Below are positions 16,389-64,000 of a stretch of DNA of 64,000 nucleotides, piece by piece. The notes beneath the pieces were generated by a model that saw only the letters and a list, made by a program, of their open reading frames with translations, did no database searches and was not told the origin of the DNA. Origin of the DNA: Crassostrea angulata (taxonomy: Eukaryota); the NCBI RefSeq assembly GCF_025612915.1, contig NC_069115.1, forward strand, positions 25,663,757-25,727,756, written 5' to 3'. Each line of letters opens with the position of its first letter. Position 1 is the first letter of the stretch. A program made the position numbers and the translations under genes.

Positions 16389-16424
<36 letters not shown>

Positions 16425-16530
16425 ATTCTGATCACATTTTGTCCGTCGTCCGTCTGTCCGTCTGTCTGTCCGTCTGTCTGTCCGTCTGTAAACTTTTTAC
16501 ATTTTGAACTTCTTCTCTAAAACCGCTTAT

Positions 16531-16562
<32 letters not shown>

Positions 16563-16686
16563 TTATGTGAGGGCAAATATAAATTGCAAAAATAAAAGTC
16601 TGATCTGTATTCAAAGCGGAGAAAACCTTGAAACTGTAGAAAAAGGGGGGTGCATTTTTAAAATCTTTAAAAATTAAAAATTTAAT

Positions 16687-16717
<31 letters not shown>

Positions 16718-17880
16718 TTCCAATTCAACGTAGTTTAGCATAAATTATCCTTATGGGAAGGAAAATATAAATTGCAAAAATTAAGTGCTAATTCTGTTTC
16801 AAATCTGAGTTATTACGAAAATAATAATAAAGGAAATGCGTGTTTCAATCAGTTTAATAGCTTCGGGTTCGGCATCCGGTAATCCGGCATCTGGTAAAAT
16901 GGGTAGGCAAGACTTGGTCTGGGCAAAACAAAGATTGGCAGTTATTAATCTGCCAATCTAATTAAAATTTCAGGATATTTGATGGACTAGTATATTTGTA
17001 TTCGCTGTAAATATTGCTGCAAAATAATGCGTATTTGGAATTAATGATTGTCGATCTGCCTTGGCTTTTATTTTGCCACGGCCCGGGATTGCATACCCAT
17101 TTTACCTAGACTCGTATTCCATACTTCTAAAACGAGGTTCTTTGTTTAAAGCAGCCATGACATTTTACGAAAAAGGGTTGATCTGTCTATGATGAATTTG
17201 CTTGTTGTGCAACAGTTCGCGTATGAAGGGAAATTTTTGAAACATGCAAAATATTGTTGCCGATTTTGTGAAGTAAATTCAGGCTAAATATTTCAATGCG
17301 TTGACAGTTTTCACACATGACGTTGGTGTTAACTTGTTCCGATTTTCGTTTCGTTTTCATTATTTCTGCTTGTAACCTGGGAACTATCGTCTGTATTATT
17401 TCGTGATTTTTACGTATCAAATCAAACAGAGACTTCGGTAAATCAAACAGTTAACTGTTTACCTGCGCACATTAAGCAAAATCTGATGTATCAAAAAATA
17501 ATGAAATACAATTCATTCTATCGGTAATTCGATCGGCATTATCTTTTGCGTAATGGTAGATTAATGCAATAGGTTTTGTTGCGATGCTCGGCATTTTCTC
17601 GAGTTTATTCAGTTTAAATAAAGTTTGACATTGCTGACGGAAATATGTAGGTATATACATGTATATATATGATTCATTTCGAAAAAATAAATTGTTCTTT
17701 ATTTGTTATAGTGAATGTTTCTTGTGTTTAATTGTTTTCAATTTCTATTTACTAACCATATTTGAGGGTTAAGCTTCAAATTATAAGCAAGATACAGAGA
17801 TTTGCTCACAATTCTATGTTTGTACACAGATCTTAAAAACTAAAGATTAAAAAAGTAAAAAATTTGTCAATATTTATTAA
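16385..17880. repeat. Segmental duplication copy A (copy B at 54968-56230), beginning with a TTAGCTCACCTGAGCTGAAAGCTCAAGTGAGC..(GTCC/GTCT)n element
   Basis: Collinear at over 90% identity apart from the 245-bp MITE indel. Other copies of the GCTCACCTGAGC-headed element are at 29975-30200, 31975-32400 and 62945-63110. The family's 3' terminus ..GCTCAGGTGAGCGATGTGGCCCCATGGGCCTCTTG is seen at 25715-25760, 57536-57575 and 58525-58570. Confidence 0.75.
16868..17112. mobile_element. Small MITE-like insertion/indel (TIR core GGTAAAATGGGTAGGC / GCATACCCATTTTACC) present in one copy of a segmental duplication
   Basis: Present at 16868-17112 but absent from the otherwise collinear duplicate around 55440-55460. 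Shares the AAAATGGGTAG core with the MITE at 4433-4644. Confidence 0.4.
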
Positions 17881-18639
17881 GAGGCAGTCTACCATAGAAC
17901 CATGCAAATGGCTATCAATGGAAGTATATCGAAATTTCATGAGACTTGGCACAGATATTCATGATAACCTAACTCGATTATAATGAGAATGATTTTTATT
18001 ACATTACATCAGTAACTATGGAAACGGATGGTACTTGGGTTTTTCCCTTGTTCTATTTATAGAACTTTTGAAAAATTAGACAGCATACAATTCTTTTTAG
18101 TTTACTGGAAATATTACACACTGCAATTGAATGAAACCCGTTTCTTCACATTGTGAAAACCCATAGGTATTCTGAATAATAAGGAATTTAAATTTCTAAA
18201 CACAATACACAAAGATATGTGGGCCTTAACTTCATGAAAATACTGAAATTTTACCAAAATTGACCTATTTGCACTAAAACTGGCATAACTGCCCAAGAAA
18301 CGCATCAATTAATATAATATTTTGTCAGCTTATATGGTCTTTATTTGTCTTTAATCTGGTTGAGGGAATTTGGTTGCAAATGAAATTCAGTGGAAATTTT
18401 GGGGGGGTGGGTGGATTTGGGAGGGGGTTGGGGTGGACATGGTGCACTTTTATCTAGGGTAAGAAAAATGCTATTACATAATTATTTAGATTTTCCTTGC
18501 CAAATAAAACAAGTAGTAATGGAGAATTAAGTAGTCTTAAAAATTAAACACACAGAATTACTATGAATTGCCCTCAGGCGGGGGGGGGGGGGGGGGGGGG
18601 GCTGCAATTGAAAGGAAACTTGGACCATTAAGTTTGTCA

Positions 18640-18735
18640 CCTAACAGCGACGCGCAGTGGGTTAGAGGGTGTACTACGAATCTGTAAGTCATGAGTTTGA
18701 CTCCCGCTCTGGGTTTTTACAATTTTTACCTCTCC
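18640..18735 (+). other. tRNA-derived SINE-like head with Pol III A-box/B-box-like motifs followed by a T-run
   Basis: GCGCAGTGGG (A-box-like) at about 18648 and GAGTTTGACTCC (B-box-like, GGTTCGANTCC 9/11) at about 18702, then TTTTT at 18714. No cloverleaf can be drawn, so this is not a functional tRNA. Confidence 0.25.
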
Positions 18736-19449
18736 AAATATTTTTAAAAGCTCTTTTTTGGTTAAATATTGTAAAATTTGAAAATTTTAAACCGGTGAAA
18801 GTATTTCAATCACAATGTACATTAATCCATATTAAAATCGAATTATGTCCCACAGCACCTCAATTTATATAAGCATCCGCTTTGACATTAAACTGTTAAA
18901 ATACAATAACAATGGATTTCATGTTACATGTATTCAAATTTAAATGAATGTACATATCAAACATTTTTTTTATCATATACATTTGTATTTTTGAGCAGAG
19001 TTTACAACATAAGTATATTGTTAAGATGATATCTGAGAAGAACACAGCAAATAACAATCTTTAACTTAATAAATAACCTGTTTAATATTCATGGATTATT
19101 TGTTACAGTTATAAACTTCAAAATGTAGATATAACCACCTGATATGAAAAAAAAAATCCTGAAAAGCCTACATGTAACACTCATTTATAAGAAATACTTG
19201 TAATGAGCCTTTGCTTCAAATGGAGCAAAAAGCAAAGACCAAATTATTGCAGTTATTTTCATGAAATATGAAAAGCCATTGTTTATAAAGCTATGAAATA
19301 AAATATGCAATACAACCAAATTTCAACCTACAATGAATACATCGGAAAGAGAATTTTAATTTCAGAAAAAAAGATACAAAATCAGTGAATTGAAATATTC
19401 ATTATTCAGTTACATACGAAAAAAAGACAGAGATGTGCAATTAATTTAA

Positions 19450-20790
19450 ATTTAGAAAGTTATCATCATCAATTAATACATGTATCCCTATTAGCCAAAT
19501 AACATCATCAATAATACATGTAGTGCTATTAGTCAAGTAAAATCATCAATTTATACATGTAGCAATAGTGGACAACTATTATCAATTAATACATGTATCA
19601 CTTTTGGCCAAATAACAACATCAATTCATACATGTAGTGCTATTAGTCAAATAAAATCATTAATTTATACATGTAGCCGTATAAGACATCTATTTTCAAT
19701 TCATACATTTAACACTGTTAGACAAATACATGTATTACCATCAATTTATACATGTAGCACTAATAACCAAACACCAACAATTCACACATGTAGCACTTAT
19801 CTTTTAGTCAAATAAAATCATAAATTCATACATGTAGTGCTATTGAACAACCTTTATCATCATTCATACATGTTGCACTAAAAGCTAAATAACATTATTG
19901 ATTCATACATATAGCACTGATAACCAAACAACATCAATTCATACATGAATCACTATTTGCCAATTAACATCATCAATTTAAACATGTAGCAATTTAAGAC
20001 AACAATGATCATTAATTCATGAATGTACATGTTTCACTATTGGCCAAATAACATCATTAATTCATGTAGCGCTGTTAGCCAAATACATGTAACCTCATCA
20101 ATTCATACATGTGGCGCTACTAGTCTAAGAACATCATCAATTCAAACGTATAGCACAATTAGCTAGCCAGGTAACACCATCAATTCACACTAGTGCTATA
20201 AGTCAACTTTTATCATCAAATCATTCATAAAGTTTACATCCTCAATTGATACACGTAGCGCTATTGGCCAAATAACAATCAATTCATACCTGTAGCGCTA
20301 TTAGTACAAAAACATTATCAATTCATATATGTGTAGTGCTAATAGAGGACTAACATCATCATTCGTACATGAAATGCTATTATAGAACAGACAACATCAA
20401 GTCATATATTAATTATGTAATGTTTTTAGCAAACTTACATCATCAATTCCTTCTTGTAGCACTATTAGACAAATAAAATTATCAATTCATACATGTAGCA
20501 CTATTAAATAACTAACATCATTAATTCATACATGTAGAGCTACTCGCCAACATTCATACATGTAGCACTTTTGGCCAAATAACATCATCAATTCATACAA
20601 GTGATGTTAGACAACTCTTATCATCAAATCATTAATGAAGTGCTATTATCTAGCTTACATCCTCAATTGATACATGTTTGTCTATTAATGGCCTAAAATA
20701 ATCAATTTATACCTGTAGCGCTATTAGAAGACTTACGTCATCAACTCATACACATGTAGTGCTATTAGAGGACTAACATTATATAAATAG
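19450..20790. repeat. Satellite/minisatellite array, about 39-43-bp unit (..ATCATCAATTCATACATGTAGCACTATTAGCCAAATAAC..), about 32 copies
   Basis: Head-to-tail degenerate repeats with conserved CATACATGTAGC and ATCAATT cores across about 1.3 kb. Confidence 0.8.
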
Positions 20791-20914
20791 TGCCTGTTTG
20801 GGAGGGTAACAGTTGAAATTGACACCCCAAGGACACCATTGTCAACCGACGCGAAGCGGAGGTTGACAATGGTTTTCGAGTAGTATTTAACATGAAAATA
20901 TAATTAATATGAAT

Positions 20915-21102
20915 TCATGCATGTATCACAATTCTCTTTGAATACTGAAGTTGATCAAGATTCATAGATGGCTGTGATTTTACAGGGGAGTACTTTCCAT
21001 ATGACAATAATTTCACAGCTTCATTTAAGATTTCATGCTCTGTTCTTTCATCTTTGGACTGATCAGACCCCACAGTTTTCTGAGATGACAGAAGATCAAA
21101 AT
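20915..21102 (-). CDS. Unknown gene, terminal exon (DFDLLSSQKTVGSDQSKDERTEHEILNEAVKLLSYGKYSPVKSQPSMNLDQLQYSKRIVIHA*)
   Basis: Acceptor attttcag|AT with phase-1 entry. 62 open codons end at TGA (20915-20917). Acidic and Ser-rich. No family recognised. Confidence 0.35.
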
Positions 21103-21577
21103 CTGAAAATAAATATATACCGGTATATTCATTAAAATATATGTATTCAAAGTATTAGACTAAACTCAGCTGTTGGATACACACATATATGTACCACTAT
21201 AATACACATGTAAAGCATTGACAGCTTTAATAACAACTATATGACATTTCAGAAAAAATTATGCATTGTAAAATTTACATATGATAATCATTTCAAGTGG
21301 CAGCCAATCTTTGAATGACCTCGATCCATAAGATGATCACAGTGACTTTTATCTACATTTAGCATTGTCCTTGTGCCTGAATCACATTTAAACTCATTGA
21401 ACTGTAAAACTGAAATTCAACCATACAGTTCAAGAAACATATATACCACCCATGCGGCAATAATGAAAAGGGTCAAAAAATTCATATTTGGAATATCTAT
21501 GATAATCTATGATAATAATGCCAAGTATGCGTCATTAATCATCTTGTACATCATGTAATATTTTTTCACTGTTATAC

Positions 21578-21652
21578 CTCTTGGGTTAGAAAATGATATA
21601 TCAGCGTCCATTGCTTCAGAATCTGTAGTTCTCTCTAATAAACAGCATATTT
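21578..21652 (-). CDS. Unknown gene, exon (EICCLLERTTDSEAMDADISFSNPR)
   Basis: Acceptor ttttgtag|AA and donor AAGAG|gtataa. Phases are consistent with both neighbouring exons. Confidence 0.35.
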
Positions 21653-22248
21653 CTACAAAAGAGTACATTTAATGTATATCTAATATACCGGTAATGTATA
21701 TGTAGTCTATATATTAACAAAAATATAGCCAAATCTTATTTCTGATTTTCATACACAATATCTAATGTACATATACAAGTATCAATTGGATATCCCAAAT
21801 GTTGATTAGTTGAACTCTCAATTATAGACATATTGTAAAATAACTAAATATAAAGTGTAGATGATTAAAGATTTTTAACCATTAAAAGACACTGTTATTA
21901 TCAGTTAATCTAATGTTGTCCAGCTAAATAAGTTTTTAGCATGAATACAAACTATAATGCTATCTTAATGGGACAAATACATTAACCATTTGAAATTCCC
22001 TTTGATTTTTAAGACATTTTTATGCATAAACCTGTTTTTCTCTTAAATACTTAAATGAAAGATCCAGGCCTGGCATGCCCCGCCCCCCCCCCCCCCCCCC
22101 CCCCCTTAATATCTTTGTTCTTACATGTAGTACTCCTCAACTCGATCCTTTGTATTTATATTTTCTGTTTCATATGTAATGTACAACAAAGTTTTATGAG
22201 TTGAATACATAATAATAATTCAGTCAATCAACTGTGTAAAAAACACAC

Positions 22249-22318
22249 CTTTCAACTCCTCCTTCAGATCTGTATTAATCTTGACACAGTTTTCTCTCAA
22301 TGCGTTTTCTGCGAACAC
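22249..22318 (-). CDS. Unknown gene, exon (VFAENALRENCVKINTDLKEELK)
   Basis: Acceptor ccattaatag|GTG and donor TTGAAAG|gtgtgt. Phase-1 exit matches the next exon. Confidence 0.35.
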
Positions 22319-24407
22319 CTATTAATGGTAAAATTCCAAACATCTGATCATTCTGATGTGTCCATTATGCATTAATTTCCCCGTAAACGTTGGTTCATTT
22401 AACAGAGTTTTTGTTCATAATCAAAACAATAATTTATCAGTGACAACAGGTAAGGAAATTGAGATCAAGCATGGGTTTATAAAAGCACTAATTCATTCCT
22501 TGAATAATAAAAATAGGTTTTCAAATTTGTATGAGTATTTCAACAAGTAAATTTTAAGTTTAGAACACTATACCACTATAAAAACTGAACTGTATATCTT
22601 TTCCATAGATATCTAATAAAATTGGGAGGGGGGCAGTTTTAATCTGATATTGATGTGCATTTATTTTATGCATACATACATGTAGTTTGTCCTAGCAATA
22701 TTTACTGGTACACATAAGAGTACTGTTATATAAATATTTTTGGTTTGTTAAGAATTATGTCATTGGGTAAAGGCAATTTTTTCTTACCAGAACCAGTTGG
22801 AAAATGTGTGCTCAGCTTCATCCATGTCTCTCGGCTTTGAATGAATGTAATTCCACTCGCGATTATGCCAGATTGAGATTGTTTATGTAGTGAATGACAG
22901 CATGTTCTCCTTTTCCTTTTCCACTGAATTCCATATTCCTGCCTGTGTTTAGGACACTACGCCCGCTGAAAATTGACAGCCTCAACCCATGCACACCAGC
23001 ACGATGATTCTGGTATTTGTACAAAATCTGACTCAGAGGTACATTAAAAAAATCTCAAGTGTGCTGAAGTGTTTTTCTTACAATCCTAAAGTATATTATC
23101 TGCTTTCTCTTTACAATTTTCACCAAAACTACATTTCAAACCATCCATTTTGTTGACATCTGGCTTTCTCCAATCATTCTTCTTTATCTTCTTTACACGA
23201 GAGTTCCACAAAGGGAGATAATTTAATTTGTAAAAATCCCGAATTTAAACACCGGAATATAAGCTTAATATTTATTTGCAACCAAATTCCCATTTAAATA
23301 TATTTTTTTATGGACAATTCTATTGTTTGAACCAAGAAACTCTAAATTTAAAACGTTTCTTGAGGTTTTATATCCTACTAAGAGAAGTAGTGTGTTTTGG
23401 ACATTACCTATCTTATTATAATATTTGATCATCTAGCTTAAAATCAACGAATGAATTAAAAAATATGTGTGCACCAAATCAAAGGTATTTGTATCAGATG
23501 TTATGTGAATCTGACTCCATGTATGATTAAACTCTATTTAATACTTAAATGACTCTATGAAATTAGCCTTATTCATGCATGAAATTTATTATGAATAATG
23601 AGCTAAAAATAGAAATGGTCTTATCTGGGGGATTTCAGTGGTGCAGATAAATTTAACCATGAAAATTTGATAAAATAGACAATATACTTTAGATATATCC
23701 AGATAAACTATGAAAATTAATCTACACCCTTCATTATAAAATTTTGATTTTGCATGGTTCTATCGTAGACTGCCTCTTAAGAAAATTTTCAAAGTCTGTT
23801 CGTTCAGAAGCCAACTTTAACATCTTATTGTATTGTAAACTTAACCTTTTTTCGTCATTATTACTCCTACTGTACATGTGATCCTGGACTGTGTTTGTGT
23901 ACATTTGTATAAACTGATTTTGAACCTCAAATACCAGTGAACGGGTCTTGAGTGAATAAAAGAATATAAAATCTTAGGCCATTCTTTTTTTCCATTTTAA
24001 ATGCTGAATAGGAAATACCAAGTTAAAAATCATAAGCTGAATGTAATAAACTCATGTGAACAAATTATGAATCAAACCTAGGCGAACTGTGAGCTCTGTA
24101 TCTTGCTTATAATTCTACAATTGACGCTGAAATTTTGGTTGAACATTAGAAAATCTCTATGAATTAGAGTATGTTAAAAACTTGTACAAACAAAATAAAA
24201 GAATGATACTGTGAAATCATTAGATTTCGTGGTGGCTTATTTTTCGTGGAATTCGTGGGTACCTCTCATCCACGAAATAACATCCTTCACGAATTGATGA
24301 ATTAGGGTAATAAAGTCATATTCCCTTTTGTAGATATATATGAATACACGAAATTACATCCCCATGAACCTGTAAAATTTAAGTCATCCACGAAAATTGG
24401 CCCCACG

Positions 24408-24990
24408 AAAGGACTATGTGCAGGTATTGCCAAATATCTGCCCCCGATTTCAACCAACTTTTAAATGGTATCGTATGAAAATGAAATCTTCACAAATCAT
24501 TGTAAAGAGGATGCCTATAACTTTAATCTTGATTTTAGTCATCATTGCTCACTCGCTGTTTATCTATGACGTCACTTAAATGACCTAATTCCCGCAAATT
24601 TGCAAACAAATGAAGATATTCTCATTTTTGCTGTATATTTTGCATTCGGAAGTATAGAGCGCAGGTCTGCTCAAGTGCGATTTTAACATATGTTTTTCTT
24701 CAGATAGTTATACATATCATACTAAAAAATGGTACTTGAGCAAGCCTGCGCTCGATGTTTCCCAGTCGAAAAACCATCGGAAAACACCCATATTTTGCTT
24801 CAAAACACCAATCTATCAAAATAATGCAATATTCATGACGTCATTTCTACATTATGACGTCACTGTGGTGATAACCTTTTACACCTTTATTTCCAATATG
24901 ATTTTAACTATCTTTCACCTTATTTTAAAGCTCTTTCTAAAACTTTGATTTTGGGGGGCAAAAATTGCATAAAAGCGCACTTAGTCCTTT
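24408..24990. repeat. About 580-bp interspersed element, copy 2
   Basis: See copy 1. Immediately preceded (24210-24407) by a CGTGG/CCACGAA-rich segment that also occurs at 27414-27540 and 28900-28990. Confidence 0.8.
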
Positions 24991-25846
24991 AATGATTCCA
25001 CAGTATTCTGTATATATCTACTCTCTGGGGCCCTCTCTTTATACAATAAATAATGTGAAATCTACATCAATTTTGATAGTTTTTCAGACACGAGTAAATA
25101 AAAACGACATCTTTAAAACAGTTTCCATATTTCTGACACATTTCTGTTGCGGGGATAAAGTAATTATCGCTATTCCTAAGAATATCACAGCGGAAAATTA
25201 TCCTGGTTTGTACGCGAAGTAAATAACAGTCATTTAATTATAATGGAGAAGACAAATAAAATTTTTGAATGTTTTTAATTTGAGGAATTGAGCACATTGA
25301 GGTACAATTTTCTTCTTCACATCTATACATGTAGTGTTTCTAAAATAAAAAACAATAACTATTATTTTTTTTTAATACAATAACTAGTAAGTACTGAGTA
25401 GTTGATGAAAAAAAATGTACCTATATGCTCTCATATATTTTGATCGCTTTACAAAGTGAGTGGGGGGGGGGGGGGGGCAGAACGAAAATATAGGGATTTG
25501 GAAGTTAACAACTTAACAGTATACCTCTACCAAATGTTTAGTTTTATATCTTGCGTAGAAATTCTTATTCTGGTAAAAAATAGTATTTCATTAAGGTACA
25601 ATGTCAAAGATTACATGTATACAAAAAAAAGTGTAAAATTCGAATACTTTACAATATTTATTTTTTGTTTTTCTACTGAGGGACCATATGGCACAATATC
25701 TTTTGAACGCCCATTGTTGCTCAGGTGAGCGATGTGGCCCCATGGGCCTCTTGTTAGAAAAACAGGAATCAAATTTGAATTTTCATGTTGCCAGTATTTT
25801 GCTTACAGAGTGTCATCGATGCAAATATTCTCTGTTTATGATCTTC

Positions 25847-28900: not shown

Positions 28901-31728
28901 TTTTGTAGATATATAAGAATACACGAAATTACATCCCCCACAAACCTGTAAAATTAAAGCTATCCACGAAAATTGGACCCCACGAAATTTAATGATTCAA
29001 CAGTAACTGATTATAACACCTGTTTTGTGGGGTTAATATATATCTATTTATGTTCTCAATTCATTACAAAGTTATTAAATCGTCAGGTAGTCTTGCACTT
29101 AACAGCTTAACATGTACTGCAATTTACTGAATATGATATTTATGCACCTTTCTTCTAGACTATTTCTTTGTGAGAGAGGGGTGTGTATAATACCCCCCAA
29201 TGGATTTTTGACACTTTTTTAAACAGTTAAAACATTGGCTATCGTAGTTCAGTTCATATTGACAAGTTATACAGAAACGCTACCTCTGTTTGTTTTATAC
29301 CGCATTTAAACAATTGAAAATTATTGTTTCGGCAAATTTAGCAAAAAATGTTTTGCTCTTAATCCGTTGATAGATAAATTGAATTTAAACAGCCATTTAA
29401 AATTAATATTAACTGTTTATTCAACAATCCAATCTGTGAATTTACCATTTCAGTCTACACTGCCATTACAGATGTTATTTATAAATCTTTGCAATAGAGC
29501 CAAAATGAATATACTCAGTGAACCTGGAATAAGAGGCCACCTGTCTTAAGTGGCCAGTTTGTCATTGTCCCACAAGTGGCCTCTTAATACAGGTGTGACT
29601 GTATTTTATTACACCTTTATCATGTTTATTCCAAACTGTACAGTTGTTTTACCGGTAACAGGAGAAAATAATGTCCTGATGGCATGTATTTTGTAAAATA
29701 CAATCGTTTTTGTTCACTCAATGTTTTCTGAAAGAAACAAACACTGATTGAAATCCCCCCCCCCCCCCCCCAGTTTTCAGCTATAATTGCAAAATGGCGG
29801 AAAAGGTTAACTTAAAGTTAAGATGTTATATCTTAAAATTCAGTGCATTTGGATTAAAAGGAAATTACAGAAACACTTCACATGAAAATCTGTACAAAGA
29901 AAACAAAGAATTATGCTAAAATGATTATGTTCTTTTTTGGGGGAGCCTTTTAGCATGCTTAGGCCTTTATCATCTTTTTAACTCACCTGAGCTGAAAGCT
30001 CAAGTGAGCTATTCTGATCATATTTTGTGCGTCGTCCATCTGTCCGTCCGTCTGTCCATCCGTTTGTCCGTCTGTAAACTTTTTACATTTTGAACTTCTC
30101 TAAAATTACTTGGACAATTTCAACCAAATTTGGCACAAAGCATTCTTATGAGAAGGCGAATATAAATTGCAGAAATGAAAGACCAATCTTTGCCTCGCTT
30201 TGGTAGCCAATTTGGAAGCCATTCTAGCTATAAAATCTCGCTAGTTCTTTAGATATTGCGTGACTTGAGTCAGGAACATTCAGACGTTTTTCACATAGCG
30301 ATAACAATATGGGTTTCAAGCATGCAATTTACAATGAGTGGTGAACACTTCTCATTGATTACATTAGTTACAAAAATGTCATCGACATCACCGCCTCGAA
30401 AAAGGAAAAGATATTATTCAAAGTTTAACGCTGACTGTCTGAAAGTATTTGACTTTCTTCATAGATCAAAAAAAGGGGATTACTATGCGTTTTATACATT
30501 TTGTCATACACATTCTCTAATAATTACAGTGTATTGATTTCCACGTTTATGATCTTTTGTTGTTTTTTTTGTTTGTTCTATTATCATGCCAGCGTTGACT
30601 CCCTCTAGATGGGACACCACTGACCAGTCAGGTTAATTCCCAGCATGCTCTGCACATCTTATTCAGCTTTGAATTTGGCCAAGAGATTCAAGATTCTGGA
30701 TGATGAGGATCTGGATACCTTTGGTGATGAGTGTCATGATTTGTCTGTTTCCCCTGATGATGACATGAAATTCATGTGTGTCAGAATTAATCAGAAAATT
30801 AAAGTGCCTAAATGTTCCCAATATTTAAATTTGATGTGCACATGCAAGCACACGCAAGTTACATCAGTTGTACCATTATTTCATGTTAATCAGTGGAACA
30901 AAGGCATGTACCTCATACTAGGACAGATCAAAAATATAAAACAGCAGAAAAATTAAGATATGTACTGGTATACAAACCCGAGTCGACATTTTACGGTTTT
31001 GTGGACTTATTTAAAAAAACCCTGAACATTTCACATTTAATCCCGGTAAAACATATGAAATACAAATAAGAAATGGGCATTTATTGAACGGAAAGTAATA
31101 ATTCTGTGATTAATTACAGTTTTTAAGAAAAACCGGGTGATTAAAACCAGATCCGATCACCCGGGACAAACTTGATAATTCCGTAACAGTTTTTTTCTTA
31201 AATATTAAGTAAAAAGAGGAAATAGGGATTGAATATATATAACGCTTGTTGCAAAATTCATGGCAGCTACTGTTGAATTTTTTTCTACTAGACAGACATA
31301 CTTTTGTTTACATATAGTCGCTTACAAAATTTGGTCGCTCTCTGACGCTTTGCCGACATTAAAAGCATGAAAGAGAGAGAGAGAGAGAGAGATTGATTTC
31401 AGTTTTTACTACACAATATGCATAAAGACACACCAAAAGAGCCCGGCTTTTAGTACTTCAGTACTTTGATTAGATCTTGGAATATGTGAGAAGTTTTTTA
31501 GTTTTATCCTCCCCCCCCCCCCCCCCAAAAAAAAGAAACAAGGAGTTTCATATTTTAAAGTTTCGTAAGATACAATATTATTAACTGTTGTTCTGGTGTG
31601 CAATGTCGCCCATGGGCCTCTTATTTATGTATTATGTTTCTCCCATATGTTAACAAGCACAAGTGAATGTTATATTGCTTTATAATTTTTTTGAATTGTA
31701 ATGTTTTGTAATCTTTTGATTTATATAG

Positions 31729-31862: not shown

Positions 31863-32030
31863 GTCAGTCTTCATCAATCTCCATTTGAGTCACATCAATG
31901 TACTGTAGAAGCACATATTTTCGATGGGTCAAAATTTCATTGTTTTTTAACCAAATAAAATTTCGTTGGCATTTAATTTTTTAGCTCACCTAAGCTGAAA
32001 GCTCAAGTGAGCTATTCTGATCACATTTTG

Positions 32031-32063
<33 letters not shown>

Positions 32064-32110
32064 CGTCTGTAAACTTTTCACATTTTGAACTTCTTTTCTA
32101 AAACCACTTC

Positions 32111-32145
<35 letters not shown>

Positions 32146-34639
32146 ATAGAAAGGTGATTATAAATTGCAGAAATGAAAGACCGACCTTTATTAATCGGAG
32201 AAATCCTCGAAAAGGTAGAAAAAAGGGGGTGCATTTTAAAGAACTACTAATTCAAATCCAACGTAATTTTGCATATTAAATAATCCTTATGGATAGGAAA
32301 ATATAAATTGCAAAAATTATCGGTGAATTCTGTTTCAAATTTGAGTTATTTACGAAAATTAAAATAGAGATAATCGCAGTCAATCAGTTCATAACTTTGG
32401 GTTTGGTATTCCATATCGAAAACGAAAGTTCTTTGTATAAAGTGTGTATAAAGTAGCCATGTTTCAATGTTGACGCATGACAAACGGGTTAAACTGAAAA
32501 AGATGAATTTGCTTGTTGTGCAACAGTTTACGTGCGAAGGGATACTTGAAACATGCCAAACATACTTGTGCCAATTTCGTGAAGTGAATTGAGGTTAAAT
32601 CTTTCAATGCATTGACATTTTCACTCGTGACCATGGTTTTACGTTGTTTTTAATTTCGTTTATGCTTTTGAATTGTTTACAATTTTCCCTACAAACCATA
32701 TATATTCAGCTGTGTCAAGTTTCGAATTATAAGCAAGATACAGAGCTTTGCTCACAGAACTGAGGCCATGCTTTTGTTTATTCTGAATAGGAAATACCAA
32801 GTTTAAAAATCTTAATTTTAAGTTGAATGTTATTAACTCTTGTGAACAAAAATTTTGTATCTGTATCTTGCTTATAATTCTACGATTGATGCTGAAATTG
32901 TGATTTATCACTAGAAATGTCTCACTAAACATTAAATACTTATACAGAAAAATTAAAAGAATGATATGCCGTAACAACGTTTTGGGGCCCCTCCTTATAC
33001 GATGAATCTACACCAACTTTGTTGGTTTTTCAGACACAATTAAATAAAAACGACCTCTTTAAAACAGTTTTAAAAATTACTGTTACGGAGATAAATGTTT
33101 TATCGCTATTCTTAAGGTAGTCCTATACTCGGCACTAAATGGGCTCAAACTTTGTAAACTTGGTTTTAAATTATAGTCATACATCCTAGAAACTGATAAA
33201 TGAAAAAAAAGAAGATAGGTCCACATGCTTATTTTTTGTTATTGGATGTAATCCATTGCACCCATGTTTTGACATTCTTGAAAAAATATATATTCTCAAT
33301 TTCCTCTTGTGAATTATTATTTATTCCATAACAAATGAAGTCTAATATGCAGAATGGAACATATACATTTCATTATACCCCCGCAAACGAAGTTTAGGGG
33401 GGTATATTGGTTTCACCCTGTCCGTCTGTCCGTCTGTCTGTCTGTCCGTCTATCTGTAGACGCAACTTTGTCCCCCCTATAGAATTTTTTATTACTGCAT
33501 GGAACAGTTTGAAAATTTGTACATATGTTGAACACCATCTGAAGATGTGCACCTGCAATTTTTTTAAGATCAGACATGATTTATTGATTTTATGACAGTT
33601 TTCATTTTCCTTATTCTATATATTGTACACTGATGTTGAAAAGTAAGGGAGGTAATCCTTACAGATTTTATTAATTAATTAATAGTATTAAAACACTCTA
33701 TAATATTTTTATTTAAATACATCCAGATGGAGATTTTTTGTCTTTATGTATTAATTAATAAATTTTTTTATTTTTTATAAGTATTCTTTCAACTGACAAT
33801 GCAAAGTTTTTGTTTGTCAATGATAAATTCTTATGAGCTAATAAGAACATCAACGACAAGTGTGGCTGAATTCATTTGTCCCAAGGGAGTCATTATCTGA
33901 GCCATGGTTCAAATGGCCCATGTGTTTAGGGAAAATTGATAATCTGTATAATGGGTGATGGTTTTGGGGCTATTTTAAAACTGTTTCATGTAAACCAAAA
34001 GTTTCTATCATTATAAGGAAATAAATAATATCATTATTAATAAAGAAGTTAAACTATTTTTAGAAGTTGTTTAAATTTATTAGTCAACTAAATTGATGAA
34101 GTGACCCTATTGGGCATTAATTGAAATGAAATTCAAAATCACTGATATGATTGTAGTGTTTTGGCAATTTTAAAATTGTTTGTAATATTAAATTTTCTTT
34201 TTTTCATAATTTTACATAGTATGGTAATTATGGTAATGTTTTGGGAGTTTATTAAATTTAACAAGCTCATCAAAGAAAATCATAGTCCTATGGGATCAAT
34301 TTTCTGATATGGAGTTCCATTGTGCCATAGGAGAAAGTGAGGAAATTTGAAACAACTAATTGCATCTGTCAAGACTCCTATTAGAAAGATATTGAAAGTT
34401 TTATCAACAGAAGAGCATTGCTTGGCTACTACCCATACAAAAAAAAAGCACTAAAAAGTTATACCTATGAGCCCTTAAAAAAGTTACAAAAAAGTCATAA
34501 CTAAGTTAGCACAATTTGGAACCATCTGATCAATTATGGTTCCAAATTAGCATCAAAAAGTTATACCTATATTGTAACTTTTTGCTTAAGTACAAAAAAG
34601 TCATAACTAGAGTGTAACTATTGACAATTTATTTTTTTC

Positions 34640-51700: not shown

Positions 51701-52420
51701 TGGGCCTTAGTAAAATAGAGCGATATGCCTGTCTATACATTGCAGTCTGAGGCTCATTGAGAGGGGTAGGGGGCTAGACTTGATCAGAAATCTTATGAGC
51801 AAAAAAAAAGATTTTGAGTACGGCTATGTCTACCTTTGCAAAAAAAAAAGTTGGGGGTGGGGGGTGGTGGTGGGGGGGGGGGGGGGGGGCTGGACCCGTC
51901 CACCCAGTTCAGACGCCTTTGCATTGATTATACATGTAATAGCTCTATGCATTTTCAACTTTTTGGGGCCAACTCCTTATACGATAAATCTACACCAACT
52001 TTGTTGGTTTTTCAGACACAATTAAATAATTGAGAAGCAAAAAACAAAAAGGTTTTGAGCATGGCTATGTCTAACTTTGCCCCAAAAAAGTGGGGAGGGG
52101 AAACCCCCCCCTTCTACTCAGTTCCGACGCCTATGCATTGATTATACATGTACTTGTAATAGTTCTTCAACATATCACATGATAACATTTTTCATTCCAG
52201 TGTATTCATCGATCAAGTGAGTAAGGTTATAAAACGTCGCACGAGTTCACGCCTGGTAAACAACAATCGTTTATAATGCGGAAGACCAATAAAATTTTTG
52301 AATGTTCTTAATTTGAGCGTCTTGAGGTACAATTTTCTTCTTTCACATGTAGGAATTTTAAAAATAAAATACAATTACTAGCTATTACAATGTAGTTGAA
52401 GATGAGTATGTACATATATA

Positions 52421-54972: not shown

Positions 54973-55010
<38 letters not shown>

Positions 55011-55136
55011 ATTCTGATCACATTTTGTCCGTCGTCCGTCTGTCCGTCCGTCTGTCCGTCTGTCCGTCCGTCCGTCTGTCCGTCTGTCCGTCTGTAAACT
55101 TTTTACATTTTGAACTTCTTCTCTAAAACCGCTTAT

Positions 55137-55168
<32 letters not shown>

Positions 55169-57534
55169 TTATGGGAGGGCGAATATAAATTGCAGAAATA
55201 AAAGTTTGATCTGTATTCAAAGCGGAGAAAACCTTGAAACTGTAGAAAAAGGGGGGTGCATTTTTAAAAATCTTCTTCTCAAGAACTACCGAGGCAAATT
55301 CAACCTAGTTTAGCATAAATTATCCTTATGGGAAGGAAAATATAAATTGCAAAAATTAAGTGGTAATTCTGTTTCAAATCTGAGTTATTACGAAAATAAT
55401 AATAAAGGAAAGGCGTGTTTCAATCAGTTTAATAGCTTCGGGTTCGGCATACGGTAAAATGATTCCATACTTCTAAAACGAGGTTCTTTGTTTAAAGCAG
55501 CCATGACATTATACGAAAAAGGTCTTTCTGACTATGATGAATTTGCTTGTTGTGCAACAGTTTGCGTATGAAGGGAAATTTTGAAACATACAAAATATAT
55601 TGGTGCCGATTTTGTGAAGTAAATTGAGGCTAAATATTTCAATGCGTTGATAGTTTTCACACATGACGATGGTGTTAGCTTGTTCTGATTTTCGTTTCGT
55701 TCTCATTATGCTTTGTAACCTGGGAACTATCGTCTGTATTTCGTGATTTTTACGTATCAAATCAAACAGAGACTTCGGTAAATCAAACAGTTAACTGTTT
55801 ACCTGCGCAAATTAAGCAAAATCGGATGTAGGGGTACTGAAATACAATTCATTCTATCGGTAATTCGGCATAATCTTTTGCGTAATGGTACATGTAGATT
55901 AATGCAATAGGTTTTGTTGAGATGCTCGGCATTTTCTCGAGTTTATTCAGTTTAAATAGAGTTTGATATCGCTGACGGAAATATGTAGGTATATACATGT
56001 ATATATATGATTCATTTCGAAAAAATAAATTGTGTTCTTTATTTGTTATACATGTAGTGCATGTTTCTTGTGTTTAATTGTTTACAATTTCTATTTACTA
56101 ACCATATTTGAGTGTTAAGCTTCGAATTATAAGCAAGATACAGAGATTTGCTCACAATTCTATGTTTGTACACAGATCTTAAAAACTAAAGCTTAAAAAA
56201 TTAAAAAATTTGTCAATATTTATTAAGAAAATTTACAAAGCCTGTTCTTCCAGAAACCAACTTTAACAACTTATTGTATTGTAACCTTAACCTTTTTAGC
56301 TCACCTGAGGGTGGGGCCACAATGGGGGGTCGAAGTTTAACAAATGAATATATAGAGTAAATCTTTAAAAATCTTCTCCTCAGAAACTAATCAGCCAGGA
56401 AAGCTGAAACTTGTGTGAAAGCATCATCAGGTAATGTAGATAAAAATTTGTGAAAATCATGATCTCCGGAGGTAGGGTGGGGCCACAATGAAGGATCGAA
56501 GTTTTACATAGGAATATATAGAATAAATCTTTAAAAATCTTCTTCTCAGAAACTAATCGGCCAGGAAAGCTGACACCTGTGTGGAAGTATCCTCAGGTAG
56601 TGTAGATTCAAAGTTGTGAAAATCATGACCCCCGGGGTACGGTGGGGCCACAATGGGGGATCGAAGTTTAATATAGGAATATATAGAGTAAATCTTTAAA
56701 AATCTTCTTCTCAGAAACTAATCTGCCGGCAATGCTGAATCTTCTTCGGAAGCATCCTCAGGTAGTGTTGATTCACAGTTGTGAAAATAATAACCCCTGG
56801 GGGTAGAATGGGGCCACAATGGGGGGTCGAAGTTTAACATATGATTATATAGAGTAAATCTTTAAAAATCTTCTTCTCAGAAACTAATTAGCCAGGAAAG
56901 CTGAAACTTGTGTGGAAGCATCCTCAGGTAGTGTAGATTCAAATTTGTGAAAATCATAACCCTGGGGGTAGGTTAGGGCCACAATGGGAGGTCGATGTTT
57001 TACATAGGAATAAACAGTGTAAATCTTTTAAAATCTTCTTCTCAGAAACTAATCAGCCAGGAAAGCTGAAACTTGTGTGAAAGCATCCTCAGGTAGTGTA
57101 GATTCATAGTTGTGAAAATCATGATCCCCAGGGGTAGGGTGGGGCCACAATGGGGGGGTCAAAGTTTAACAAAGGAATATATAGGGTAAATCTTTAAAAA
57201 TCTTCTCAGAAACTAATCAGCCAGATGTTTCTTTATAATTGTTAAGAATTTGGCCCCAGGACAATTCTTTGGCCTCCCGAGAAGGTTCAGAGTTTGATGT
57301 ACGTTTATATCTAATATATAAACTATTGTTAAGGATCATTTTGAGAACTGCAATACTCAACATATGATATGACTATAAAATCATCTTGTTAGAAAAGGGA
57401 CTAATGATTATAAACATAAGAATATCCAGGGGAAAATGGATTTTATTTATACAGGATCTACATGTATTATTGTACATTGTCCAGATAGTTTGTATTATGA
57501 CTCCATTAAGCTGATTTTATCATACCTATTATTC

Positions 57535-57569
<35 letters not shown>

Positions 57570-58230
57570 CAGTTTAGTTTACAAGATTTTTAACAACATT
57601 AACAGCCATAATGTATCATCTGCAAAGACTGATTATTCACTGATAAATTATATCATTTTTAAAAAATATATAAATTGAACAATGAAGAAATTAAGCGTCA
57701 AATTTAGGATCTAGTAATGACCATTTGATCATGATGTCTGAGACCTTCGTTGTTGTCAATGAATTTACATGTTTCTTAGAATTGAATAAATAATATAACT
57801 ATAATATATCACATCTTTCTTTTTCAAAATTAAAGATGCCACATTTATATAGGTGTTTGCATGAATATTCATGAATGTTCATGAAGACTGTTTTACTATT
57901 AATATTTTAAGATGTATAATTTTTTTTAAAAAGATAATGTTCTGAATACTAGAGTAAACTATGTAATTTATAAAAGTATTTGAAATTAATTATATATTTC
58001 GTAAATTAGAACTTCATGAAAATTCATGAATGTTCAATACCTAGAACTATAATTTCCTGTATTCTTGTATATTCATAATTTGTTCATGAATTACATTTTA
58101 AGAATATATTCATGAATAAAATTCATGAACCACCTTTATGAACCAGTTATGAACCAGTCATGAATACATCATGAAACTTCATGAACGGTTCATTAAAGTT
58201 CTTAAAATCATGAATTTCATCTCGCAGGGG
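52421..58230. mobile_element. About 5.8-kb TIR DNA transposon-like element with subterminal TTCATGAA palindrome clusters
   Basis: Left end CCCCTGCGAGATGATCATGAA and right end TTCATGAAATTTCATCTCGCAGGGG form a 14-bp perfect TIR. Dense TTCATGAA/TCATGAA arrays lie just inside both ends (52436-52690 and 57845-58215). The interior carries other repeats (GCTCACCTGAGC-element copy, 165-bp satellite). TSD not resolved. Confidence 0.5.
56300..57235. repeat. About 165-bp satellite, about 6 tandem copies (unit contains GGTGGGGCCACAATGGGGGGTCGAAGTTTAAC...AAATCTTTAAAAATCTTCTTCTCAGAAACTAATCAGCCAGGAAAGCTGAAAC...)
   Basis: Regular 165-bp periodicity. Joined directly to a TTTAGCTCACCTGAG element head at 56287 and followed by the tail ..CCTCAGGTGAGCGATGTGGCCCATGGGCCTCTTG at 57540. 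Confidence 0.8.
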
Positions 58231-58735
58231 AATACATGCATATTCTCATATATAATTTGATCATGTTTTTAAAGTGAGGGGGCAGAACTAAAATAAAGGG
58301 AAGTAGAGTTAACAGTGTATAACCCCTACCAAAAATTTAGTTTTATTTCTTGCATAAGATCTTATTTTTGATAAAAATGGTATTTCATAAGGGTACAATG
58401 TCAAAGATTAAGTGTAGGAAAATAAGTGTAAAATTTGGATACAGTTTATTTTATGGGATTCTTTTTTTGTTTTTCTACCGAGGGGCCAATATGGCACAAT
58501 ATCCTTTGTACACCCATATAAAGCCATTGTTGCTCAGGTGAGCGATGTGGCCCCATGGGCCTCTTGCTCATAATTGTAATCTCTTGTATTAATTCTTGAG
58601 TTAAAAATTCTTCAAGGATTTAATTTTGTTGATTTATGTGGCCAAGGAAAATAATGAAATTAAATCCTCAACGAATATTTCTGCTCCTACAGTATTTAAA
58701 TAAAAGATAAAAACACATGTATGATTTATTTTCAG

Positions 58736-61721: not shown

Positions 61722-61849
61722 GTATGTATCATGTATAAAAAAACTTCTTCTATTAGTTCACTGTCTGATTGGAGTAGAACACTATTTTTATGCCCCCCTT
61801 CGGAGAAGGGAGGGCATATTTCTTTGCTGCTGACCGGTCGGTCGGTCGG

Positions 61850-62350: not shown

Positions 62351-63043
62351 CATTTTCTTTGTGGATGTTTCCAAGGGAGGGGGGCATATGGTTTTCACAA
62401 ACATCTCTTGTTAATAAAGAAGTTAACTATTTTTATAAGTTTTTAAAATTTATTAGTCAAGTAAATTGATGAAGTGACCATATGGGGCATTGATTTAAAT
62501 GAAATTCAAAATTACTGATATGATTGTAGTGTTTTTGGCAATTTTAAAATTGTTTGTCAATTAAAACTTTTTTTTTTACATAGTATGGTAATTATTTAGG
62601 GTAATGTTTTGGGAGTTTATTAAATTTGACAAGCTCATCAAAGAAAATCATAGTCCTATGGGATCAATTTTCTGATATGGAGTTCCAATGTACCATAGGA
62701 GAAACATCTGTCAAGACTCTTATTAGAAAGGTGTTCAAAGTTTTATCAACAGAAGAGCATTGCTTGGCTACTGGTATTTCCATTTACTGCAAAGGGTGGA
62801 ATTATTCTCATTGTGTTGGTTTGTCTAAAACAATAAAATAAAAAAAAATCATCAGATACATATATTTGTAAATGTATTACTGTTATACATATACATACAG
62901 TGAAATTCTGACAATTTTGATTTTAATTTTTCTTTGTTACCTATTTTCTTTTTTAGCTCACCTGAGCTTTCTATTCTGATCACATTTTGTATGTCGTCCG
63001 TCTGTCTGTCCGTCTGTAAACTTTTCACATTTTCAACATCTTC

Positions 63044-63090
<47 letters not shown>

Positions 63091-63099
63091 TTAGCCTAA

Positions 63100-63890
63100 G
63101 GGATTCAAAGTTGTGAAAATTTAGGACCACGCCCTTTTGTAAAGGGAGATAATAAGGAATTTATGAATATTTTCGAGAAATTTTCAAAAATCTTCTTATC
63201 AAGAACCATAAGACCAGGTAAGCTGAAACTTGTGTGAAAGCATCCTCAGGTAGTGTAGATTCAAAGTTGTGAAAATCATGACCCCCGAGGGTAGGGTGGG
63301 CCCACAATGGGGGGTCGAAGTTTAACATAGGAATATATAAAGTAAATCTTTAAAAATCTTCTTCTTAGAAATTAATCAGCCAGGAAAGCTGAAACTTTGT
63401 GAAAGCATCCTCAGGTAGTGTAGATTCAAAGTTGTGAAAATCATGAATTCCGGGGGAAGGGTGGGGCCACAATGGGGGGTCGAAGTTTCACATAGGAATA
63501 TATAAAGTAAATCTTTAAAAATGTTCTTCTCAGAAACTAATCAGCCAGCAAAGCTGAAACTTGTGTGGAAGCATCCTCAGGTAGTGTAGATTCAAAGTTG
63601 TCAAAATCATAAATCATAAACCCCGGGGGTAATATTGGGCCACAACTGGGGGTCAAAGTTTTACATATGAATATATAGAGTAAATCTTTAAAAATCTTCT
63701 TCTCAGAAACTAATCAGCCAGGAAAGGTGAAACTTGTTTCAAAGCATCCTCAGGTAGTGTAGATTTAAAGTTGTGAAAATCATGACCCCCGGGTGTAGGG
63801 TGGGGCCACAATGGGGGGTCGAAGTTTAACATAGGAATATATAGAGTAAATCTTTAAAATCTTCTTCTCAGAAACTAATCAGCCAGATAA
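63100..63890. repeat. Second array of the same about 165-bp satellite (about 4.5 copies), again downstream of a truncated TTAGCTCACCTGAGC head (62945)
   Basis: Same unit as 56300-57235. Followed by the same tail segment (..TTGAGAACTGCAATACTCAACAT) at the window end. Confidence 0.75.
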
Positions 63891-64000
63891 TAATTGTTAA
63901 GCCCAGGACAATTCTTTGGCCTCATAAGAAGGTATAGAGTTTATATCCCATATATAAACTATTGTTAAGGATCTTTTTGAGAACTGCAATACTCAACATT

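Follow-up and report, generated by a model that had tools for sequence, protein, structure and literature searches.

What kind of mobile element carries short satellite arrays in a 64-kb stretch of Crassostrea angulata DNA (the window), and did those arrays form where they now lie? A preliminary description had proposed a MITE or Helitron-like family that seeds satellite DNA. The repeats are almost certainly non-autonomous Helentrons (Cg_HINE group 1, Helitron-N2_CGi and relatives, or "pearl"), of which two carry Cg170 arrays and four 2.6-kb copies carry none. The assignment to Helitron-N2_CGi rests on CL1 array identity and on the published architecture, the flanks being compared by description and box lengths, not letter by letter. 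The system is already known and published, and nothing essential is new: the family entered the literature as a MITE ("pearl") and stands in Repbase as Helitron-N2_CGi and relatives (PMC7492417; PMC8268682), and the carriage of Cg170/HindIII satellite monomers by non-autonomous Helentrons was described by Vojvoda Zeljko et al. in 2020 (PMC7492417).

Termini and Anatomy of the Repeat Family

The family had been said to recur at least six times, with a hairpin in its tail, and the termini bear out both points. The sequence GCTCACCTGAGC, with at most one mismatch, occurs 14 times in the window, against 0.04 occurrences expected by chance, and TTTTTA precedes seven of seven heads (14064, 16395, 29981, 31984, 54981, 56299, and 62956). 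The tail GCGATGTGGCCCCATGGGCCTCTTG is matched exactly at 25729 and 58542 (zero expected); position 57546 has a variant shorter by one base, and position 31586 a degenerate one. A palindrome, GGCCC(C)ATGGGCC, precedes the element end by 5 nt in each of the four tails and in L001, a full, uninterrupted 2.6-kb element with both termini from elsewhere. The family starts with TTTTTAGCTC and ends in CTCTTG, with the termini TTTTTAGCTCACCTGAGC ... GGCCCCATGGGCCTCTTG. Similarity among copies breaks off sharply on the outer side of TTTTTA and of CTCTTG, and the DNA beyond is unrelated.

For the anatomy of HINEs and of canonical Helitrons we used the definitions of PMC4067079, and the copies have the parts of a HINE. 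Subterminal inverted repeats of 12 bp (subTIRs) are present: 6 nt separate GCTCACCTGAGC from the 5' end, GCTCAGGTGAGC stops 22–23 nt short of the 3' end, and the pair is complementary at 12 of 12 positions in E16, E54, L001, and, as a variant pair, E56. A further inverted repeat, GCTCAAGTGAGC, follows 5 nt downstream of the 5' subTIR in E16, E29, E31, E54, L001, and the independent copy L002 and is absent from E56 and E62; the head folds into a hairpin of -12.5 kcal/mol (z -5.2). The (GTCY)n microsatellite and the 166-bp central arrays match HINE content, and the published box lengths of 44/49/156 bp (PMC8268682) agree with those seen in the window elements. No open reading frame of at least 50 aa lies inside E56, in keeping with a lack of coding capacity, and none longer than 168 aa occurs in the window. 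The head had been described as leading into a (GTCC/GTCT)n tract; the full formula (subTIR, TGAAA, GCTCAAGTGAGC, and (GTCY)n) holds in four of four array-less copies and in neither of the two array-bearing ones.

Some observations stand against the Cg_HINE reading. The 5' inverted repeat of the family consensus is missing from both copies with an array, and the folding energies of the short 3' palindromes are modestly better than those of shuffled sequences (z about -2 for two tails) or, for E56, not significantly different from them.

Twelve-base inverted repeats near both ends of short, non-coding, AT-rich elements would also suit a classical TIR MITE (the original "pearl" class), which a DDE transposase would move by cut-and-paste, creating target-site duplications. 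We consider this very improbable. Target-site duplications, proposed earlier as the mark of a MITE, were found at no consistent offset in the four complete copies examined, and because they are absent and the inverted repeats are subterminal, the elements are not TIR MITEs. The two ends are otherwise asymmetric, and the true TIR elements that lie nested in this window, which have TTAA or TA duplications, look quite different. A canonical (Helitron1-type) non-autonomous Helitron, with a 5'-TC, a 3' hairpin followed by CTRR, and insertion at A^T, shares with the family a GC-rich palindrome near the 3' end, the lack of a target-site duplication, and the Repbase label "Helitron-N2_CGi." It too is a very unlikely reading: the start is TTTTTAGCTC, the copies are flanked by T-runs or T instead of A^T, and the subterminal inverted repeats are absent from canonical Helitrons (PMC4067079). 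Of the marks that were to identify a Helitron, only the hairpin is present; since the elements end in CTCTTG, not CTRR, and lack an A/T insertion site, they are not canonical Helitrons. The earlier term "Helitron-like" stands in a broad sense, that of the Helentron branch of the rolling-circle superfamily.

Insertion at TT or T-rich sites without target-site duplication, as in a Helentron, is what the copies show. The 3' flank begins with T in three of the four complete copies, and each array-bearing copy borders a T-run that continues unbroken in paralogous or independent sequences. A SINE-type origin was considered and rejected, tRNA and Rfam scans of the window both being empty. Exact-pattern scans of bacterial and archaeal genomes and viral contigs with the head, tail, and monomer gave no matches, as expected for an animal repeat, and the literal subTIR string retrieved only unrelated primer matches from the literature.

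Table 1. HINE copies, their parts, and the satellite arrays in the window
Feature	Position	Strand	Basis or remark
E14, head-only remnant, 19 nt	14058..14076	+	terminus matches; identical to E31 head
E16, complete 2.6-kb-type HINE split by two nested transposons	16389..25753	+	BLAST to L001
E16 segments	16389-17879, 23777-24205, 25003-25753
E16 5' subTIR	16395-16406
E16 inverted repeat	16412-16423
E16 microsatellite	16440-16489
E16 3' subTIR	25719-25730
E16 palindrome	25736-25748
E29, shortened copy: head, inverted repeat, microsatellite, about 100 bp	29975..30189	+	terminus matches, L001 comparison
Degenerate solitary tail, GTTCTGGTGTGC..GCCCATGGGC..CTCTTA	31586..31625	+	no significant fold
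E31, internal deletion, 3'-incomplete	31978..33116	+	terminus matches, L001 comparison
E54, 2.6-kb-type HINE without Cg170 array, most likely host of E56	54975..58566	+	BLAST to L001
E54 head	54975-55009
E54 5' subTIR	54981-54992
E54 inverted repeat	54998-55009
E54 microsatellite	55027-55092
E54 3' subTIR	58532-58543
E54 palindrome	58549-58561
E56, array-bearing HINE copy, 1275 bp	56293..57567	+	TRF, terminus matches, monomer HMM
E56 5' subTIR, variant GCTCACCTGAGG	56299..56310	+	fused directly onto monomer
Cg170/HindIII-type (CL1, CgiSat01) array	56308..57224	+	TRF 166-bp period, 5.5 copies, 86% matches; nhmmer
E56 3' subTIR, CCTCAGGTGAGC	57534..57545	+	exact reverse complement of the variant 5' subTIR
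E56 3' palindrome, GGCCCATGGGCC	57551..57562	+	5 nt from element end
E62, array-bearing HINE copy, cut by window end	62950..64000	+	TRF, monomer HMM, terminus matches
E62 5' subTIR	62956-62967
E62 microsatellite	62993-63017
E62 spacer/diverged unit	63017-63177
Second Cg170-type array	63178..63889	+	TRF 165-bp repeat 63178-63886, about 4.2-4.3 units

Array-less Copies

The remaining four copies represent the family's 2.6-kb form and have no Cg170 array (Table 1). E16 matches positions 378–2989 of L001 at 92–95% identity in three collinear blocks; the left copy of a TTAA pair (17876–17879) closes its first segment, and the right copy (23777–23780) opens the second. In E54, 54975–55461, 55462–56297, and 58240–58566 correspond to 378–832, 1048–1891, and 2664–2988 of L001. 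Comparison with L001 also removes two supposed short derivatives of about 300 bp (25456–25760 and 58255–58570), which turn out to be the 3' ends of E16 (head at 16389) and E54 (head at 54975), and the poly-G with which they were said to begin is internal to the 2.6-kb element (L001 about 2699–2711). E14 was considered as a possible seventh element and set aside, 19 nt of head being all that remains.

Two Array-bearing Copies

E56, previously placed at 56287–57575, is a real element with slightly narrower best limits (Table 1). It consists of T5A, the 5' subTIR, 5.5 Cg170 monomers, a 309-bp unique 3' region, the 3' subTIR, the palindrome, and TCTTG, and its tail reads CCTCAGGTGAGCGATGTGGCCCATGGGCC. 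There is no inverted repeat, microsatellite, or spacer, and the junction between subTIR and monomer is TTTTTAGCTCACCTGAGGGTGGGGCCACAATGG. The changes in its two subTIRs match each other, preserving 12/12 complementarity (GCTCACCTGAGG and CCTCAGGTGAGC).

E56 is most likely nested inside E54. At its 5' junction lies a T-run that continues unbroken at two empty sites, in L001 (about 1887–1892) and at 23842–23847 of the window, and at the level of sequence the nesting is proven at this junction only, because 57568–58082 is not homologous to the canonical host element. A search for the continuation of the host element after E56 (57565–58245) found no homology (score 27 versus a shuffle mean of 27.6).

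The second copy, E62, is laid out as T5A, subTIR, microsatellite, a spacer or diverged unit, the array, and the start of the 3' unique region, its inverted repeat being deleted (a 13-nt gap). It is collinear at 86.7% identity with L002, which comprises a head, inverted repeat, microsatellite, spacer, and Cg170 array, and its empty T-run site is found at 28765–28778 of the window.

Origin of the Satellite Arrays

The tandem units of both copies had been put at four to six of 165 bp each (56300–57235 and 63100–63890), and TRF recovers them at 56308–57224 (166 bp) and 63178–63886 (165 bp). With the monomer HMM, the first array resolves into a partial unit (positions 121–166), five full units of 164–166 bp, and a partial unit (positions 1–45), and the second into four full units and a partial one, preceded by one diverged unit. 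The central repeats belong to CL1: the first 399 bp of the array in E56 align gap-free and in register, at 97.7–98.2% identity, with the CL1 arrays scaffold110:56085 and scaffold1327:98572 of C. gigas v9 (Table S1 of PMC7492417). Other CL1 arrays are 86–93% identical to the window arrays, and they too are closest in register (93.4% versus 85–87% when shifted in one case and 91.3% versus 86–88% in a second). CL1 has been placed in Cg_HINE_1; its flanks match Helitron-N2_CGi, and its consensus monomer shares 93.7% identity with Cg170 (PMC7492417).

Monomers are 86.0 and 84.7% identical within the two arrays and 85.7% identical between them; those within an array are thus no more alike than those of different arrays, so local homogenisation is absent. 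Between paralogous copies on other C. gigas scaffolds, in contrast, equivalent array positions are 98% alike. Because monomers are 85–86% alike within an array and 98% alike at the same position across scaffolds, these sequence comparisons indicate that both window arrays arrived as ready-made units and were inherited as such, not grown in place.

The opposite account, a plain satellite or segmental duplication in which the arrays formed locally and duplicated neighbouring DNA accounts for the shared flanks, would fit two arrays less than 7 kb apart in the same orientation. It would also fit the unit numbers among near-identical copies (3.3, 5.5, and 7.5), which differ and so imply that arrays change length locally. 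We judge it extremely unlikely, given the sharp loss of similarity at the termini with unrelated flanks beyond, the lack of any excess of identity within arrays, and the register-specific 98% matches on other scaffolds. Moreover, of about 900 CL1 arrays examined, 24 start at the exact phase of the E56 junction and 94 at that of E62. That the family seeds satellite DNA is a published hypothesis for Cg170; the two arrays in the window came in ready-made.

As to where such arrays come from, L003 (ENA ERZ4291122), from another source, has the same head sequence followed by a 156-bp array. The 156-bp "Box 3" spacer of the family is 82.6% identical to the L003 unit versus 63.6% to Cg170. This favours the spacer being the lone remnant of a unit that a related element carries in tandem and suggests that arrays may originate from the element's own sequence.

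The unit of about 160 bp could alternatively be a protein-coding repeat, because KIFFSRTTGPISTKLGTKHPWVKGIQVCSNEGP-like repeat "proteins" appear in public gene calls. A phmmer search with the 67-aa ORF at 55110–55310 retrieved 89 protein clusters, many with two to four repeated stretches; a word-indexed protein search with the same ORF gave no matches. The clusters derive, however, from contigs of metagenomes or of Logan, and they lack any Pfam domain. The L003 gene (cluster member P0091), the one locus read back, does not yield the protein under the standard code, its DNA having TGA where P0008, the representative of the same 90% cluster, has Trp. The Cg170 consensus has four stops in that frame, and the 166-bp period, which is not a multiple of three, breaks the frame. 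On the strength of the consensus stops, the period, the metagenomic origin of the gene calls, and the TGA-for-Trp locus, we rejected a coding unit as hardly conceivable.

Relation to Known Systems and Implications

By analogy with the family, the Rep/helicase/endonuclease of an autonomous Helentron elsewhere in the genome would recognise the termini, probably the T-run with the 12-bp subTIRs and the 3' palindrome, and the element would be copied by rolling-circle ("peel-and-paste") transposition. The copy would be inserted at a TT or T-run with no duplication of the target; T-run targets and the lack of duplication are observed in the window, and the process itself is modelled on the family. 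The satellite array would travel as cargo between the termini, its unit number varying between copies, and very long arrays may eventually outlast the element. No autonomous partner was seen in the window, and in the 2020 paper, too, none could be paired with the Cg_HINEs (PMC7492417).

The closest published relative is Cg_HINE_1 (group 1, with N2_CGi, N2C, and N2d; PMC7492417), which shares with the window family the order 5' subTIR, inverted repeat, (GTCY)n, spacer, array, 3' subTIR, and palindrome. Like the window copies, it carries a Cg170-type array of 166–167 bp units, about 4.6 on average, and inserts at T-rich or TT sites without target-site duplication; the listed CL1 arrays are up to 98% identical to those of the window. 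It differs from both window array copies in having the 5' inverted repeat; E56 is, in addition, devoid of microsatellite and spacer, a minority structure not described in PMC7492417. The Cg170/HindIII satellite (CgiSat01) has the monomer length of about 166 bp in common, with a constant orientation relative to the element, but the window arrays are short and element-borne, with four to six units, whereas standalone arrays reach 232 units (PMC8268682). Compared by design, pearl (C. virginica, Anadara), MgE (Mytilus), and DTC84 (Donax), bivalve tandem-repeat "MITEs" later re-classified as HINEs, share the modular plan of left flank, core repeats of about 160 bp, microsatellite, and right flank; they differ in species, flank sequence, and monomer sequence. 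DINE-1/HINE elements of Drosophila, mites, and mosquitoes (Thomas et al. 2014, PMC4067079) are unrelated in sequence to the oyster family, and for them, unlike the oyster family, autonomous partners were identified.

The window is a textbook-quality local example of the published Cg_HINE/pearl Helentrons spreading Cg170 through oyster genomes, and it displays in one place empty T-run sites, an old copy invaded by third-party transposons, arrays inherited as units, and an array-bearing copy that apparently lies inside a relative without an array. Only two leads are mildly new, the relic-monomer spacer and a minimal-head subfamily, and both bear on the source of a Helentron's tandem repeats and the cis sequences that it needs. 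It is possible, although we would not favour it, that E56 represents a propagated subfamily in which T5A and the 12-bp subTIR lead straight onto a Cg170 monomer. Should the approximately 24 or more C. gigas arrays with the same start, among them the 98% identical copies on two other scaffolds, all share the E56 junction, a Helentron could be mobilised without the 5' inverted repeat and the microsatellite, and subTIR complementarity would be the feature under selection. Such a minimal-head subfamily, if real, would provide a series of natural deletions that defines which cis sequences Helentron transposition requires.

Oyster Satellite Arrays within a Terminus-defined Element Family

The window is about 31% GC and contains many tandem arrays, an AT-rich, array-filled composition typical for an animal genome. 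TRF placed a repeat of 166 bp at 56308–57224 (5.5 copies, 86% matches) and one of 165 bp at 63178–63886 (4.2 copies). A monomer profile resolved the first array into a partial unit (positions 121–166), five full units and a second partial (1–45), and the second array, from 63178 on, into four full units and a partial (1–48), with a diverged unit upstream at 63035–63121; the end phase within the monomer is identical in both. The 12-mer GCTCACCTGAGC, with at most one mismatch, occurs 14 times in the window against 0.04 expected, in seven heads (all preceded by TTTTTA), four adjacent inverted repeats and three tails. A 25-nt tail motif is present in two exact copies (none expected), with a variant one base shorter at 57546 and a degenerate tail at 31586. 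In alignments, similarity has sharp edges, beginning at TTTTTA and stopping at CTCTTG. On the strength of the TRF calls, monomer profile, motif counts and sharp-edged alignments, the satellite arrays within a terminus-defined element family are real. The preliminary description of the feature was largely correct.

For reference we used the tandem arrays that Vojvoda Zeljko et al. 2020 (PMC7492417) list for the Crassostrea gigas assembly in their Supplementary Table S1. Positions 56308–56706 are 97.7 and 98.2% identical to the CL1 arrays scaffold110:56085 and scaffold1327:98572, respectively, with no gaps and in the same register. Other CL1 arrays fit particular positions best: C24428 is 93.4% identical to the last two units of the first array (85–87% in other registers), and C30792 is 91.3% identical to the first units of the second (86–88% in other registers). 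These comparisons identify the 166-bp unit as the Cg170/HindIII satellite of oysters. In Cg_HINE_1, a non-autonomous Helentron (HINE), CL1 arrays form the central repeats; this element's flanks match Repbase Helitron-N2_CGi, and its monomer consensus shares 93.7% identity with Cg170; its left side carries a 5′ subterminal inverted repeat (subTIR), a complementary inverted repeat and a GTCY-type microsatellite, its right side a 3′ subTIR and a palindrome, and it prefers T-rich/TT insertion sites, without target-site duplication (PMC7492417). A satellitome follow-up equated CL1/2/10/13 with CgiSat01 and described three boxes common to Helitron-N2_CGi and N2C: one of 44 bp at the start, one of 49 bp at the end and one of 156 bp that separates the microsatellite from the repeats (PMC8268682). 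The same layout is found in the window copies. The Cg_HINE family was originally described as a MITE, "pearl", before it was re-assigned to the Helentron-derived elements. The feature is already known, as the Cg170-carrying Cg_HINE/pearl Helentrons of oysters.

We judged class membership by the Helentron/HINE criteria of Thomas et al. 2014 (PMC4067079). The subTIR pair is complementary at 12/12 positions in every complete copy, an inverted repeat lies 5 nt past the 5′ subTIR (head fold −12.5 kcal/mol, z −5.2), and 5 nt separate the palindrome GGCCC(C)ATGGGCC, whose folding scores are modest (z about −2), from the 3′ end. Insertion sites are T-runs, and the four complete copies showed no target-site duplication at any consistent offset. 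The array-bearing copy with its head near 56 kb (E56) has no ORF of at least 50 aa, and no tRNA or Rfam match was found within the window. Two other classes were rejected: the 5′-TC, CTRR-3′ and A^T target of a canonical Helitron are lacking, as are the terminal repeats and target-site duplication of a TIR MITE.

Copy Boundaries and Nesting

Copy boundaries were corrected by mapping L001, an uninterrupted 2,611-bp element on one contig, evidently oyster, found by a tail scan of metagenome contigs; its head and tail are canonical, and it carries no Cg170 array. The mapping joins heads and tails into single elements E16 (92–95% identical to L001 over three collinear blocks) and E54, both of the 2.6-kb type, E16 being interrupted by a TTAA-flanked and a TA-flanked TIR element (see the table). 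Short derivatives of about 300 bp beginning with poly-G, as they had been described, are therefore merely the 3′ ends of E16 and E54, the poly-G tract being internal to the 2.6-kb element. E56 sits between the two E54 blocks and starts at a T-run that is uninterrupted in L001 and in E16 (23842–23847). The nesting of E56 in E54 is demonstrated only at the 5′ junction, because the 0.5 kb 3′ of E56 (57568–58082) has no detectable homology to the canonical 2.6-kb interior. The 5′ flank of E62, the second array-bearing copy, is itself a repeat (62408–62954) with an 83% identical paralogue at 28193–28778 and a further piece at 38889–39061; the paralogue, in which no HINE interrupts a T14 run, is an empty site for E62.

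Features in the window
Feature	Position	Description
E16	16389-17882, 23777-24205, 25003-25754	One element, head 16389, tail 25753
~5.9-kb element	17880-23776	Non-coding, nested in E16; 28-nt TIRs with one mismatch (GAGGCAGTCTACCATAGAACCATGCAAA / TTTGCATGGTTCTATCGTAGACTGCCTC); TTAA at each side, a piggyBac-style target duplication
39-bp tandem array	19465-20537	Inside the ~5.9-kb element
~0.8-kb TIR element	24206-25002	ATACTGTGAAATCATTA ... TAATGATTCCACAGTAT, TA-flanked, nested in E16
Second copy of ~0.8-kb element	13023-13604	96% identical
E54	54975-56297, 58240-58566	One element, head 54975, tail 58566; blocks match L001 378-1891 and 2664-2988
E56	56293-57567	Array-bearing copy
E62	62950 to window end	Array-bearing copy
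E29	29975-30189	Truncated copy
E31	31978-33116	Internally deleted copy
Solitary degenerate tail	31586-31625	
Head remnant	14058-14076	19 nt
Different HINE family	61785-62410	Head TTTTTATGCCCCCCTTCGGAGAAGGGAGGGCATA, then (GGTC)n microsatellite; 161-bp × 3.1 array (61858-62361); tail GGGAGGGGGGCATATGG...CTCTTG
Exon-like open frame	61480-61722 (+)	Major Vault Protein repeat (Pfam PF01505, E 1.6e-9); ends at a GT splice-donor-like site
Another repeat, two copies	27534-28587, 33372-34429	94.5% identical; palindromic head TATACCCCCGCAAACGAAGTTTAGGGGGGTATA, then (CTGTCCGT)n
ORF	41128-41631 (-)	168 aa, sole ORF of at least 150 aa in the window; RNase_T/exonuclease-like (Pfam PF00929, E 2e-7)
Octamer-rich blocks	52402-52692, 57860-58249	Rich in palindromic TTCATGAA; mutually related on both strands
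Further tandem arrays	42720-42930, 47959-48288, 34650-35213, 38514-38785	88-bp and 131-bp units with GTTTCCGC...GCGGAAAC palindromes in common; AT-rich 23/45/113-bp and 42-bp minisatellites

Among the neighbouring repeats, the HINE of a different family lies directly 3′ of a host exon, and an intron of an MVP gene appears to hold both this HINE (61785) and the one at 62950. The repeat at 27534 and 33372 may be a third HINE-like family with the common GTCY microsatellite. The octamer-rich blocks adjoin interior fragments of the 2.6-kb HINE (51958–52375 and 58240–58566), of which they may represent an inserted or variant part.

Array History

The proposed linkage between element termini and repeat holds in independent copies. 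L002, from outside the window, contains head, inverted repeat, microsatellite, spacer and Cg170 units, and is collinear with E62 at 86.7% identity; among about 900 CL1 arrays, the start falls at the E62-type junction in 94 and at the E56-type junction in 24. Seeding of satellite DNA in place does not describe these two arrays: mean monomer identity is 86.0% within E56, 84.7% within E62 and 85.7% between them, whereas paralogous copies from other scaffolds, compared position by position, are 98% identical. The arrays are therefore old assemblies, moved as units by transposition. Unit number differs among near-identical copies (3.3, 5.5 and 7.5), so changes in array length do occur.

Short open frames are present in the monomers, and a phmmer search with a 67-aa ORF of the spacer region matched 89 predicted-protein clusters with repeated stretches. 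These are unnamed gene calls from metagenome or Logan contigs and lack any Pfam domain. We read back one locus, L003, fetched with cluster member P0091. Translated with the standard code, its called gene fails to give the protein, and its DNA has TGA at the place of a Trp in P0008, the representative of the same 90% cluster. In that frame, four stops interrupt the Cg170 consensus, and the 166-bp period breaks frame. A coding repeat was ruled out on these grounds; the protein matches are just DNA homology among bivalve HINEs, sensitively detected. L003 (positions 4965–5940 of an ENA ERZ4291122 contig) is a related HINE with a near-identical head (TTTTTAGCTCACCTGAGCTGAAAGTTCAAGTGAGC), in which a 146-bp × 2.8 array comes straight after an unrelated 156-bp × 3 array, a double-array layout like that described for Cg_HINE_10_13 and Cg_HINE_11_12; the gene call there is a 250-aa "protein", apparently with TGA read as Trp.

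Departures from the Published Description

The 5′ inverted repeat is absent from both array-bearing copies. E56 also lacks the microsatellite and spacer, its subTIR being joined to monomer position about 121, and its subTIR pair is a variant (GCTCACCTGAGG / CCTCAGGTGAGC) that is still perfectly complementary. That 24 arrays share this start phase, and that a diagnostic 35-mer from the first monomer of E56 occurs 25 times in Table S1, suggests a propagated minimal-head subfamily. In E62, the "Box 3" spacer can be aligned to the monomer profile (z 12.2) and is 82.6% identical to the tandem unit of L003, but only 63.6% identical to Cg170; judged by this alignment and identity, the spacer is a relic monomer. 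The putative minimal-head subfamily and the relic-monomer spacer, and nothing else here, are perhaps worth a genome-wide look. Where the repeats come from was left open by the 2020 paper (PMC7492417), and the spacer, as a relic monomer, mildly favours their derivation from the element's own sequence.
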